DNA of 64,000 nt. Origin: Parachlamydiales bacterium. Its GTDB lineage: Bacteria > Chlamydiota > Chlamydiia > Chlamydiales > JAJFMK01. The stretch's first letter is position 1. Every line of letters starts with the position of its first letter. Positions 60,779-63,146 of this stretch are shown one piece after another. The stretch lies in NCBI GenBank assembly GCA_963704365.1, contig OY969899.1:872421-936420 (forward strand), read 5' to 3'. Below the pieces are notes generated by a model. The model searched no databases, was not told the origin of the DNA, and saw only the letters and a list, made by a program, of their open reading frames with translations. The translations under genes and the position numbers were made by a program.

Positions 60779-61289
60779 GTAAATTCTTCTATTTTGTAAG
60801 CGCTGCCCAGAAAATCGGGAATTAAGCTAAGGAAGCGCCCCCTCTAATCATTTCTTCTTTTCTTTGAGCCGCTCGACGAGAGCTTCGAAATGGGGGGTAG
60901 AACGTACAGCTTCGAGCCACTCGTCTTCGATGAGCTCTTCGTGTGGAGGAAGGGCTCCCATCACCTCAGCTCGACTGAGGAAACGGTTAGAGGCATCAAG
61001 ATTCCCTTGAAGAGAGTGCAGGCAAGCCAAATGATAGCTGGCATGCAAGTTACCGTGTCGCCGAGCCCACTCTAAGCGATCTTCGGCCTCTCGAAAAACA
61101 GCTTCTTTTCTTCCTGGAAGGGAAGGATCATCGACAAGTTCTGCAAAGCTTAAGAGAGAAACTCCCCATTCAGCAAACACCACATCATCTTCTGGGTCTT
61201 TTTCTGCTTGAGATTTGAATAGTTCAAAAGCCCGCTCGAAACATTCTGGCTCGCTTGTGGCCTCTCCCAAATGAGAAAGGACAGACGCC
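60779..61289. repeat. ~511-bp direct repeat, copy A
   Basis: Colinear with 62636..63146 at a constant offset of 1857 nt, with about 15 substitutions counted by eye. Confidence 0.85.
60848..61270 (-). pseudogene. Duplicated 3' fragment (140 codons) of the TPR gene at 62705..63931
   Basis: The encoded GEATSEPECFERAFELFKSQAEKDPEDD...VERLKEKKK is nearly identical to the C-terminus of the 408-aa protein. It has no genuine start or N-terminal part. Confidence 0.75.
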
Positions 61290-61498
61290 CCTAATGGCGT
61301 TTATTATTAATAGTTATTGGTTCTGATTGAAATGACTACAAGCCCAACTACTTGGCGTGGCGACAACTCTTAATCAGCTCCATTATGGAACCCCGAAGCT
61401 ACCCTCTTTTCTGCGCTCCAAACTGACTGTTATATCTGTTTACGAGGAAGCTAAAACAATCCCGAGTTTTTCCCCTATTATGAAGAGGTCCGAAGGAG

Positions 61499-61831
61499 TC
61501 AGTGTAAAATAACATTAACCCCTTTACGTCGAACAAGGTTCAATAAAACGAGCGTAGCCCCTGTAGGCTCTTTTAAGCCTCTTTCTAGCTGAGAGATGTA
61601 ACCAACTGTTAGGTTGAGGTAACTAGCGAATACGGCCTGACTAAGATGCGCATGTTCGCGTAACATGCGAATTTCTTCACCAGTCACCCGTTCTATTTTT
61701 GGACGATCCTCTTTGCTAAGATGTCTCATTGTGATTTTTTTGTAGGCTTGCTCATCCAAGATTCCGCCGTCTGACATATCTTTTGCAGTTTCGAGAAGAG
61801 CTTTTTTCAATCGACTAGATTTCTTTGTCAT
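61499..61831 (-). CDS. XRE-type HTH antitoxin (COG2944/NadS-like)
   Basis: 110 aa with the C-terminal HTH IRMLREHAHLSQAVFASYLNLTVGYISQLERGLKEPTGATLVLLNLV. Overlaps the upstream toxin gene by 17 nt. Confidence 0.75.
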   Translation of the reverse strand: MTKKSSRLKKALLETAKDMSDGGILDEQAYKKITMRHLSKEDRPKIERVTGEEIRMLREHAHLSQAVFASYLNLTVGYISQLERGLKEPTGATLVLLNLVRRKGVNVILH

Positions 61832-62213
61832 AATTTACCTCTTGTAAAAGACCATTAGAAAGCGAACGACTAAGCTCTTTATCGCTTGCCTTAAACCATG
61901 CAACGGCCATTTCTTTGAACGTCGTTAATTCGTCATCATTAATGTTTTCGCGTTCGTTCTTCGCAAAACCGTAGAGAAACACAGCTCGTTTGCCCTTCTT
62001 GTAGGCAACTACTGTACGATATCCCGATGACCGACCTTCTCCTTTTCTTGCGATCCTTAGTTTGATAACATTCCCCCCTAATTCAGCGTCAACAAGTCCA
62101 CGCTCTGCGCGTTTTATCGCTTCTTTCAAAGAATCATCATCAATATGTGCCTTTAGCGCATACCGCCCAAACCACTTCGTTTTAAAAACCCGCAAGATGT
62201 CCCTCCTTAACAT
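61815..62213 (-). CDS. RelE/ParE-superfamily-like toxin (DUF1044/COG4737 type)
   Basis: ORF trimmed to ATG 62213. ...RVFKTKWFGRYALKAHIDDDSLKEAIKRAERGLVDAELGGNVIKLRIARKGEGRSSGYRTVVAYKKGKRAVFLYGFAKNEREN matches the family I know as the toxin partner of COG2944 antitoxins. Confidence 0.7.
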   Translation of the reverse strand: MLRRDILRVFKTKWFGRYALKAHIDDDSLKEAIKRAERGLVDAELGGNVIKLRIARKGEGRSSGYRTVVAYKKGKRAVFLYGFAKNERENINDDELTTFKEMAVAWFKASDKELSRSLSNGLLQEVNYDKEI

Positions 62214-62635
62214 AAGGGTAACACCATGAACTATACTTTGCAATAAGGGGGTGTTTTGCTTTAGTTATAAGCCGATCATGGTTGCAGCGTTTTCCTGCAA
62301 CTTGTTAGTGCGCCGCAGGAACGCCTTTTTAAGGCGGATATTAACGATGTTTTGGCGAGGTTTCGTGAAGCGTGTGAAAGGAGAGGAGAAAGCTTCTCAA
62401 TAGTTCATGAATAGCTGGTTGCGTCACCCCTTGCGCGTAAAGATAGTTGTTGTGACTTTTCAAGTTGCTCAAGAAGTGTTTGGATGAGGACAACCAACCC
62501 CTTCATAGAGGTCGATTCGCGCACTTCAGGAGAAAATATAGCAAGAATGCCTTCGAAGTTCATGCTTGAACATGATCTGCGAAACCAGACTTAACGACAA
62601 TAAAAAATTTAGGAAATCTCTATTGGTGTCTGACC

Positions 62636-63146
62636 GTAAATTCTTCTATTTTGTAAGCGCTGCCCAAAAAATCGCGAATTAAGCTAAGGAAGCGCCTCCT
62701 CTAATCATTTCTTCTTTTCTTTGAGCCGCTCGACAAGAGCTTGGAACTGGGGGGTAGAACGTACAGCTTCAAGCCACTCGTCTTCGATGAGCTCTTCGTG
62801 AGGAGGAAGGGCTCCCATCACCTCAGCTCGACTGAGGAAATGGTTAGAGGCATCAAGATTCCCTTGAAGAGAGTGCAGGCAAGCCAAATGATAGCTGGCA
62901 TGCAAGTTACCGTGTCGCCGAGCCCACTCTAAGCGATCTTCGGCCTCGCGAAAAACAGCTTCTTTTCTTCCTGGAAGGGAAGGATCATCGACAAGTTCTG
63001 CAAAGCTTAAGAGAGAAACTCCCCATTCAGCAAACACCACATCATCTTCTGGGTCTTTTTCTGCTTGAGATTTGAACAGTTCAAAAGCCCGTTCGAAACA
63101 TTCTGGCTCACTTGTAGCCTCTCCCAAATGAGAAAGGGCAGACGCC
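62636..63146. repeat. ~511-bp direct repeat, copy B (3' end of the intact TPR gene plus downstream sequence)
   Basis: See copy A at 60779..61289. Confidence 0.85.

Follow-up and report, generated by a model that had tools for sequence, protein, structure and literature searches.

We analysed a 64,000-nt stretch of a Parachlamydiales bacterium chromosome (contig OY969899.1), referred to here as the window, and found an intact toxin-antitoxin pair lying between two direct copies of the 3' end of a TPR gene. The features of the locus are as follows:

60004..60741, minus strand: native downstream neighbour, a 245-aa membrane-protein gene with syntenic homologs in L001 and L031
60779..61289, minus strand: direct repeat copy A, consisting of an orphan TPR 3' fragment (60848-61288) and a 69-nt tail (60779-60847)
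61290..61492, minus strand: unattributed 203-nt flank from the antitoxin stop to copy A, without matches
61499..61831, minus strand: antitoxin gene, 110 aa, C-terminal Xre-type HTH (HTH_3 and HTH_31 matches)
61815..62195, minus strand: toxin gene, 126 aa, TTG start, RelE superfamily PF06296, HigB2-like (PF06296 match)
62196..62275, minus strand: conserved putative promoter/operator of the cassette (five-context alignment, inverted repeat and sequence reading)
62266..62322, minus strand: relic of a tyrosine integrase gene 3' end, last 16 codons and stop (DNA match to L039)
62371..62620, minus strand: relic of an IS66-family transposase gene (HMMER, tblastn and homology to L034)
62636..63146, minus strand: direct repeat copy B, consisting of 146 TPR codons and stop (62705-63145) and a 69-nt tail (62636-62704)
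62705..64000, minus strand: 3' two-thirds of the TPR gene (open frame to the window edge; Pfam TPR families and NCBIfam TPR_END_plus)

The segments 60779-61289 and 62636-63146 form a direct repeat of 511 nt with zero gaps at a constant offset of 1857 nt, and their homology breaks off sharply at either end. The two copies differ at 15 positions (97.07% identity over 511 nt), which bears out the gap-free repeat with about 15 substitutions reported in a preliminary description of this DNA. Two of the lengths given there needed correction. The TPR gene was described as encoding 408 aa because the window truncates it; the frame continues past the window edge, and the gene encodes 622 aa in contig L005, which is 99.99% identical across window positions 55442-64000, and 622-624 aa in the orthologs of L001, L002 and L031. 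Similarly, the repeat was said to cover the last 140 codons and about 70 bp, as the open reading frame had been counted from an internal TTG; it in fact comprises 442 nt of coding sequence (146 codons, the stop and a single base from the codon before) and a downstream tail of 69 nt. The TPR gene is intact and its end is copy B. The TPR 3' fragment in copy A is probably a pseudogene, with an in-frame TAA four codons upstream of the homology and a TTG at 61270 that is not preceded by a Shine-Dalgarno sequence. A small hairpin (ACGCC-ATTAGG-GGCGT) spans the junction 61289/61290. Additionally, 511 bp is a considerable length for a repeat at an attachment site.

The window is part of a metagenome-type assembly, and the SNPs that separate the copies resemble those between strains, as might be seen if the repeat had been collapsed or expanded or if two strains had been joined into a chimera, an artefact that the preliminary description had itself named as its possible undoing. 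Independent short-read and long-read assemblies confirmed both junctions, however, and make such an artefact extremely improbable. In particular, the Logan short-read unitig L006, a contig from five samples, was 100% identical to window 62665..61190; it crosses both junctions and has the copy-A-specific SNPs. Five further unitigs (L011-L015) stop exactly 30 nt into copy A, which is where the repeat edge should produce a de Bruijn branch. The same gene set was found on three Mb-scale contigs, and the TPR-to-cassette part of the arrangement was also present in the long-read contig L017. A tandem duplication of the whole 1857-bp unit was rejected because the insert is not repeated beyond either copy.

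The 1346-bp insert between the repeats carries an intact, toxin-first pair. As the preliminary description had proposed, the toxin belongs to the RelE superfamily and its partner is an HTH antitoxin. The toxin matched PF06296 (RelE, formerly DUF1044) over model positions 2-120 of 120 with an E-value of 1.1e-44 and 151.9 bits (cut-off 27). Its start is most likely the TTG at 62195, giving 126 aa, since this start is conserved in five genomic contexts and non-triplet indels lie upstream. The only PDB sequence matches of the toxin were to Vibrio cholerae HigB-2, with an E-value of 1e-3 for the single sequence and 1.3e-4 against the HigB-2 chains with a 26-sequence profile. Structures of the HigB2/HigA2 system are available (PDB 5JA8, 5JA9, 5JAA and 5J9I; PMC5416850), and the active-site residues of HigB2 are K49, R51, R64, Y82 and K84 (PMC10098735, after Hadzi 2017). 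Four of these five residues, K49, R51, R64 and K84, are kept as toxin residues K45, R47, R60 and K79. Among 120 homologs, K45, R60 and K79 were invariant, whereas position 47 was R in 119 and K in one. The position of Y82 is occupied by Phe in the toxin and in 119 of the 120 homologs, and a conserved Tyr75 lies two residues earlier. The operon is likewise toxin-first. In contrast to these likenesses, the relationship is remote; only a 60-residue toxin core aligns (E 1e-3 to 1e-4), the window toxin of 126 aa has a longer C-terminus, and the host is an obligate intracellular chlamydia rather than the carrier of a Vibrio superintegron. PADLOC made no defence-system assignment for the toxin, and a search of IMG/VR viral contigs with it returned only distant relatives with 62% and 45% identity.

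The antitoxin matched HTH_3 at residues 54-97 (E 1.9e-9, 37.9 bits, cut-off 23). Its only PDB matches were to HigA-2, with residues 32-103 aligned to HigA-2 residues 23-93, and it shares the HigA2 layout of an N-terminal extension of about 50 residues followed by a C-terminal Xre HTH. It does not belong to MqsA (TIGR03830), scoring 32.7 bits against a cut-off of 61.8 with a match to the HTH half only (model 41-118), and it has no Cys motif corresponding to the N-terminal CxxCG zinc ribbon of MqsA. The two genes overlap by 17 nt at 61815-61831, exactly as had been described. Judging from the homologous pairs HigBA2 of V. cholerae and ToxP/AntitoxP of Coxiella, the toxin would act as a ribosome-dependent mRNA endonuclease; the antitoxin would neutralise it through the N-terminal region and repress the operon through the C-terminal HTH. 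Upstream of the toxin, we found a putative promoter with a -35 element TTGCAA (62243..62238), a 17-nt spacer and a -10 element TACCCT (62220..62215), which is weaker than the TATACT or TATATT found in relatives. A Shine-Dalgarno sequence, AAGGAGG, precedes the toxin at 62208..62202, and an inverted repeat, AACACC (62255..62250) and GGTGTT (62225..62220), is the candidate operator. As read from the sequence, the region 62196..62275 may thus serve as both promoter and operator.

The pair is a discrete mobile cassette. A unit of about 780 bp (window ~62275..61493, promoter included) recurs with 80-90% DNA identity in five or more other contexts, in which the cassette boundaries were identical and the flanks were unrelated; the antitoxin partner stays at 110 aa in all contexts. 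This agrees with the preliminary description of a mobile toxin-antitoxin module. On mobile-element contigs that bear ParA, helicase and primase genes, the pairs most similar to that of the window (80-95%) immediately follow integrase genes. In L039, a full Phage_integrase gene is followed by a toxin that is ~93% identical to that of the window (8 differences in 126 residues), and the same order of integrase and pair was observed in L008 and L009. The best E-value match of the L008 integrase was on a Protochlamydia naegleriophila plasmid. The toxin matched 254 plasmid records, Coxiella plasmids among them, all at less than 60% identity. A blastn search with the insert matched nothing in phage collections, and in plasmid collections its sole match was a 76-nt stretch of the toxin gene on one plasmid; the insert was not found elsewhere in the window.

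A search of the insert for integrase and transposase relics, which the preliminary description had suggested, was positive for both. The remnants it called non-coding are indeed present, and those upstream of the pair are now recognised as an IS66 transposase relic and an integrase 3' end. The integrase relic lies immediately upstream of the cassette and was detected by DNA matches to L008 and L039. Window 62315..62266 was 84% identical to L039 5062-5111 (E 3e-10) and colinear with the cassette, and the match to the L008 integrase end was weaker. The relic translates to RRTNKLQENAATMIGL, compared with RRTNKWQENAATRIGL at the C-terminus of the L039 integrase. A permissive tblastn search of 61200-62750 with the L008 and L009 integrases and their neighbouring proteins gave only noise.

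The IS66 relic retains a truncated leader with codons 1-39 (62563..62447) and, in another frame, a piece of the HTH region (~62484..62371), with an internal deletion; both pieces were placed by tblastn. In an exhaustive HMMER search, the 61-aa frame of the relic gave 13 matches (best E 5e-11), all at protein N-termini. The leader aligns to L034 and L038. In the homolog L034, a 174-aa ORF is followed directly by a 359-aa DDE_Tnp_IS66 ORF, and there are GTAAG... termini. The upstream flank resembles the IS66 family in encoding the transposase N-terminus and an HTH piece; the window copy differs from it in lacking the DDE domain, the terminal inverted repeats and a target-site duplication. A reading of the left junction as an IS66 terminus made by transposition was rejected because the terminal hairpin and GTAAG end of L034 are missing from the window and the junction falls inside the leader. 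The 511-bp duplication was not caused by the IS66 relic, which is debris. On the other side of the pair, the 203-nt flank matched nothing in the window, the phage and plasmid collections, Pfam or the retrieved loci. Pfam searches of all stop-to-stop frames in both flanks found nothing, no inverted repeats indicative of a transposon or MITE were found at the insert ends, and Rfam and tRNA scans of 55000-64000 revealed no family above threshold and no tRNA target.

The comparison with related genomes that had been proposed was run on L001, L029, L030, L031 and L002, whose TPR genes show 68-85% identity. In each of them, the TPR and membrane-protein genes are present with different content in the slot between them, and neither the toxin-antitoxin pair nor the duplicated TPR fragment was found in any. 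The membrane-protein gene marks the far edge of this variable slot, with native sequence resuming after copy A. The collections yielded neither a deletion allele nor a close empty site, and they contain no relative above 90% identity except the same organism.

The reading we prefer, to which we assign a probability of roughly 0.55, is that an integrase-bearing mobile element in the Parachlamydiales chromosome has eroded to the remnant seen at this locus. The donor would have been a circular element with ParA, HTH_17, tyrosine-integrase and HigB2A2-like genes, of the type seen in L008 and L039, that brought along its own version of the final 442 nt of the host TPR gene together with the 69 nt downstream. 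A single reciprocal crossover between this element and the chromosomal TPR gene, that is, a Campbell-type integration, would have produced an intact TPR gene ending in one repeat, the element, an orphan TPR 3' fragment and the native downstream gene. Either the element integrase, acting at the 5' edge of the repeat, or RecA, acting at any point of the 511 bp, may have catalysed this crossover, and we propose that copy B plays an attL-like and copy A an attR-like role. Later, an IS66-family element and deletions would have wiped out the integrase along with the remainder of the element, leaving the toxin-antitoxin cassette with its own promoter as the sole intact survivor. Release of the toxin upon loss of the pair would explain why the pair outlived the element. 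The observed topology supports this reading, as the intact target gene, the insert, the orphan 3' fragment and the native neighbour follow one another in this order, and the IS66 relic sits in the space expected for the integrase body. The preliminary description had the module captured by duplication or recombination, which was too vague; the evidence points to the decay of a whole integrase element and not to the move of a lone toxin-antitoxin pair. At least one extra deletion must be assumed, since the left junction falls in the IS66 leader and not at an integrase-proximal attachment site. The donor is hypothetical because no TPR-like segment is present in the sampled elements (L007, L008, L009 and L039) and neither a circular form of the element nor a close empty site was found.

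The same left junction fits a different origin, in which the 3' end of the TPR gene was duplicated in place during an illegitimate insertion. Downstream of the TPR gene, the repair of a double-strand break or of a fork that had stalled would have copied mobile-element DNA (the IS66 relic, the integrase end and the pair) from a plasmid or another locus, and synthesis would have re-entered the chromosome 511 bp upstream, so that the copies were identical at birth and have since diverged. Both junctions look illegitimate, with the left one cutting within the IS66 leader; neither an attachment-site core nor a terminal inverted repeat is recognisable, the insert is already a patchwork of fragments, and the donor with a TPR segment was not found. 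The differences between the copies bear on this origin. We found 8 synonymous, 4 non-synonymous and 3 non-coding differences, giving a pS of 0.081 and a pN of 0.012, and neutral divergence of both copies was rejected (p 0.001-0.009). Synonymous divergence of 8% against non-synonymous divergence of 1.2% is unlike a dead copy, and it fits copies that would have diverged mostly under purifying selection, as expected if one came from a related lineage. Non-synonymous changes made up 33% of the coding changes, compared with the ~56-65% expected for a dead copy. In a polarisation that left out L002, at least two and probably three of the four non-synonymous differences were derived in the orphan copy A. 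The substitution test only weakly disfavoured a duplication in place after which the orphan decayed (p 0.02-0.09). As this origin also requires two independent illegitimate joins and leaves the integrase-proximal orientation without a reason, we consider it unlikely.

Inference from these SNPs is blurred by possible gene conversion. The centre of the repeat is poor in SNPs, with one in 235 nt (permutation p 0.016), and its third-position divergence to orthologs is ordinary, which suggests later gene conversion.

The low dN/dS between the copies would also suit alleles of two lineages that were brought together by RecA only, with no integrative element involved. In this case, linear or circular DNA of a related strain, with the pair beside its own TPR 3' end, would have entered during co-infection and been fixed by homologous or homology-facilitated illegitimate recombination anchored in the TPR 3' end. 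The repeat, 511 bp at 97% identity, is an ample RecA substrate, and gene flow between plasmid and chromosome is documented in chlamydiae (PMC7846284). The topology would be the same as that left by a decayed element, the enzyme being the sole difference. However, an integrase relic adjoins the pair, so an integrase-bearing element is the simpler donor, and no strain is known with the pair beside a single TPR 3' end. We regard capture by RecA only as rather improbable.

Returning to the decayed integrase element, the idea in the preliminary description that a putative addiction effect of the pair would oppose its loss through the repeats is reasonable. A further possibility, which we consider very doubtful, is that the 1857-bp unit, consisting of a repeat copy and the insert, is still mobile without a recombinase of its own. 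If this were true, RecA excision between the repeats would free a circle with the pair and a TPR homology arm, able to integrate again into the TPR gene of any related chromosome; in this way, the end of a host gene would serve the pair as a homing arm, and the pair would penalise its own removal. All that the SNP-poor centre, a possible gene-conversion tract, shows is that the two copies may still interact.

There is no new mechanism at this locus, and every component as well as the overall layout has known precedents. The layout is the same as that of prophage e14 in E. coli. Prophage e14 spans 15 kb, encodes a functional integrase and excisionase and duplicates a far shorter part of icd, whereas here the repeat is 511 bp, the element is down to 1.35 kb and only 16 integrase codons are left. 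Both have direct repeats of the 3' end of the target gene, with the intact gene on one side and an orphan fragment on the other. As set out for e14 (and phage 21) in icd/icdC, such an element is integrated in the 3' end of a protein-coding gene and brings a slightly divergent replacement 3' end, and when the two copies recombine, an intact but chimeric gene results (Hill et al. 1989; PMC13626634). ToxP/AntitoxP of the Coxiella burnetii plasmid QpH1 resembles the window pair as a HigBA2-like pair of an intracellular bacterium with a link to mobile replicons; the toxin inhibits translation, the partner neutralises it and the plasmid is stabilised (PMC10098735). It differs in being plasmid-borne and functioning in plasmid maintenance, whereas the window pair is chromosomal within what we read as a dead element. 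HigBA and MazEF of Waddlia are type II modules of Chlamydia-related bacteria, and the HigB toxins are toxic in E. coli (PMC10880633). The Waddlia HigB toxins were modelled on Streptococcus pneumoniae HigB, which is another branch, and no flanking duplication of a gene end is described for these modules (PMC10880633).

In environmental chlamydiae, toxin-antitoxin pairs occur on plasmids and chromosomes alike (PMC10880633), and the mobile elements of these bacteria are still incompletely catalogued. An insertion of this sort is an ordinary event, of which the locus is a clearly laid-out example. The integrase stub, the IS66 debris and the duplicated end of the target gene can all still be read around the intact pair, and the locus illustrates clearly how toxin-antitoxin pairs end up alone in chromosomes. 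It adds a HigB2/HigA2-like family and its ParA-integrase carrier elements to the mobile gene pool of environmental chlamydiae.

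The repeat search and pairwise alignment revealed that the 3' end of a TPR gene was present twice in the window, on either side of an insert carrying a toxin-antitoxin pair.

60779-61289, reverse strand: copy A, an orphan 3' fragment of the TPR gene
61290-62635: insert of 1346 bp, toxin and antitoxin genes on the reverse strand
62275-61493, reverse strand: toxin-antitoxin cassette, toxin first, with its upstream region
62315-62266, reverse strand: integrase relic, directly upstream of the cassette
62636-63146, reverse strand: copy B, the end of the intact TPR gene

As the preliminary description had proposed, the two copies were colinear, with 15 mismatches over 511 nt and no gaps; homology stopped sharply at either end. 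The repeat indeed comprised the TPR 3' end and a downstream tail, but its coding part was 146 codons and the stop codon, not 140 codons, and the tail was 69 nt. The TPR gene, taken to encode 408 aa, had a frame open to the window end and was 622 aa long in the near-identical 2.6-Mb ENA contig L005; its orthologs were 622-624 aa. A small hairpin (ACGCC-ATTAGG-GGCGT, 61283-61302) lay across the junction between the insert and copy A, its right arm being the first bases of the repeat; it may represent a core-like recombinase site or have arisen by chance.

An assembly artefact as the source of the repeat was ruled out. L005 was 99.99% identical to window 55442-64000, and the same gene set was found on two more Mb-scale contigs. 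L006, a Logan short-read unitig present in five samples, was 100% identical to window 62665-61190, spanned both insert junctions and had the copy-A variants. Five more unitigs ended exactly 30 nt inside copy A, which is expected de Bruijn graph behaviour at a repeat edge.

The toxin-antitoxin cassette is mobile: its DNA showed 80-90% homology in at least five other contexts, always over approximately 62275-61493 and with unrelated flanks. In three mobile-element contigs (L008, L009 and L039), a Phage_integrase gene directly preceded the cassette, and ParA, HTH_17, helicase or primase genes were also present; L008 and L039 were related to each other across 5 kb. The L008 integrase had its best E-value match on a Protochlamydia plasmid, and the toxin family was found on 254 plasmid records. 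Repeated motifs of the CTGTAATACAG / GTGACA type crowded the intergenic stretch that separates the integrase gene from the HTH_17/ParA side (L039 3655-4035 and L008 4400-4652); they may serve as iterons or as arm-type sites for the integrase. In L018-L028, from a different chromosomal lineage of chlamydiae, a deletion of ~190 bp had reduced the toxin gene to a 63-aa stub with the 110-aa antitoxin gene intact, which looks like a toxin-first decay path; in L018, this cassette (7777-8339) had NB-ARC/LRR genes on one side and a Glyco_hydro_114 gene on the other.

The rest of the insert had been called non-coding remnants, which for the upstream flank could be resolved into transposase and integrase relics; the 203-nt downstream flank had no match in the window, phage/plasmid collections, fetched loci or Pfam. 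The integrase relic was 84% identical to the 3' end of the integrase gene in L039 (E 3e-10), with the translation RRTNKLQENAATMIGL before the stop, compared with RRTNKWQENAATRIGL before the stop in L039. An exhaustive HMMER search with one frame of the upstream flank yielded 13 homologs, each aligned N-terminally and each an IS66-family transposase. In the homolog L034, a 174-aa ORF was directly followed by a 359-aa DDE_Tnp_IS66 ORF, and the GTAAG... ends had long hairpins. The window relic consisted of leader sequence, the first 39 codons and part of the HTH region and lacked an IS66 terminus; the left junction is therefore not a transposition junction, and its origin by IS66 transposition was rejected. 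The ends of the L034-type subgroup were long perfect hairpins (L034 2866-2950 and 4640-4725), and protein searches (P0135-P0163) returned only fragments of at most 301 aa; this subgroup seems to be a decaying Parachlamydiales IS lineage.

The nearest genomes were Parachlamydiales MAGs. Relatives with contigs reaching that far conserved the order DsbH-like gene, TPR, variable slot, membrane-protein gene, typA and mgtE. In this slot, L001, L029 and L030 had a gene of 211 aa, L031 had two ORFs (230 and 340 aa) and L002 had an ORF of 359 aa; the toxin-antitoxin pair and TPR fragment were absent from all five. No allele closer than 90% was found in a 15-billion-protein collection, except where other samples contained this same organism. 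Colinearity with L005 broke at window 55442 / L005 16390, a strain-level insertion or rearrangement; past the break, L005 had an element of the IS66 family, with a 557-aa transposase and long inverted ends that included GGTAAGGACCCC, followed by an autotransporter gene that the window lacked.

The 15 differences between the copies comprised 3 in the 69-nt tail, 8 synonymous and 4 non-synonymous changes (pS 0.081, pN 0.012). Neutral divergence of both copies was rejected (p 0.001-0.009), and the pattern agreed with purifying selection on both; the orphan copy carried the derived state at a minimum of two, and probably at three, of the four non-synonymous sites. We found 5 SNPs in the first 69 nt, 1 in the central 235 nt and 9 in the last 206 nt (permutation p 0.016 for the SNP-poor centre). 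Since third-position (synonymous) divergence to orthologs was even along the repeat, the SNP-poor centre suggests gene conversion between the copies.

Topology, integrase stub and substitution pattern are best explained by Campbell-type integration of a putative circular integrase-toxin-antitoxin element. Such an element, with its own TPR 3' end, would have entered the TPR gene, and a later IS66 hit and deletions would have left only the addictive pair; the layout is analogous to that of e14 in icd/icdC (PMC13626634). A live rival is that duplication in place during an illegitimate insertion made both copies, although with a dead orphan copy this was weakly disfavoured by the substitution test (p 0.02-0.09). 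The preliminary view of a captured mobile module is partly supported: the cassette is mobile and lies beside integrase and IS66 relics, and the best fit is integration of the whole element with subsequent decay.

Elsewhere in the window, a non-coding repeat family of ~300 nt (35661-35983, 39738-40060 and 55527-55828; 96-99% identity) included a near-perfect ~80-nt hairpin, which produced spurious miRNA-like Rfam matches at 55609-55688. The first two copies were mutually inverted around 3.75 kb in which a protein-kinase-like gene accompanied a riboflavin operon (Lum_binding, DHBP synthase/GTP cyclohydrolase II and DMRL synthase); the repeat may be a MITE-like element or inversion substrate. The typA gene and the gene for the 245-aa membrane protein converge on an inverted repeat at 59867-59956 (40-nt arms, 93% complementary), a probable bidirectional terminator. 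Two neighbouring ~2.3-kb segments at 44847-49030 (74-79% identity) suggest tandem paralogous genes.

The proposed RelE-superfamily/DUF1044-like toxin and HTH antitoxin were both recognized: the toxin matched the whole PF06296 model (E 1.1e-44), and the 110-aa antitoxin had an Xre HTH domain and scored under the cut-off of the MqsA family model. The probable toxin start, TTG at 62195 preceded by AAGGAGG, was kept in five contexts with non-triplet indels upstream, which sets the toxin at 126 aa. In the PDB, the toxin matched only V. cholerae HigB-2 and the antitoxin only HigA-2 of the same species. The four basic residues of the HigB2 active site aligned with the window toxin; among 120 homologs, three never varied and the fourth was R in 119. 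The HigB2 Tyr82 position was Phe throughout the toxin's subfamily. A conserved predicted promoter lay upstream of the pair (TTGCAA-17-TATACT, flanked by an AACAC/GTGTT inverted repeat). The predicted -10 hexamer was TACCCT in the window (62215-62220) and TATACT or TATATT in four related contexts, and the chromosomal window copy may on this basis be more weakly expressed. Homologs act by ribosome-dependent mRNA cleavage, antitoxin neutralisation and autorepression (PMC5416850, PMC10098735), and by analogy the window pair would act in the same manner.
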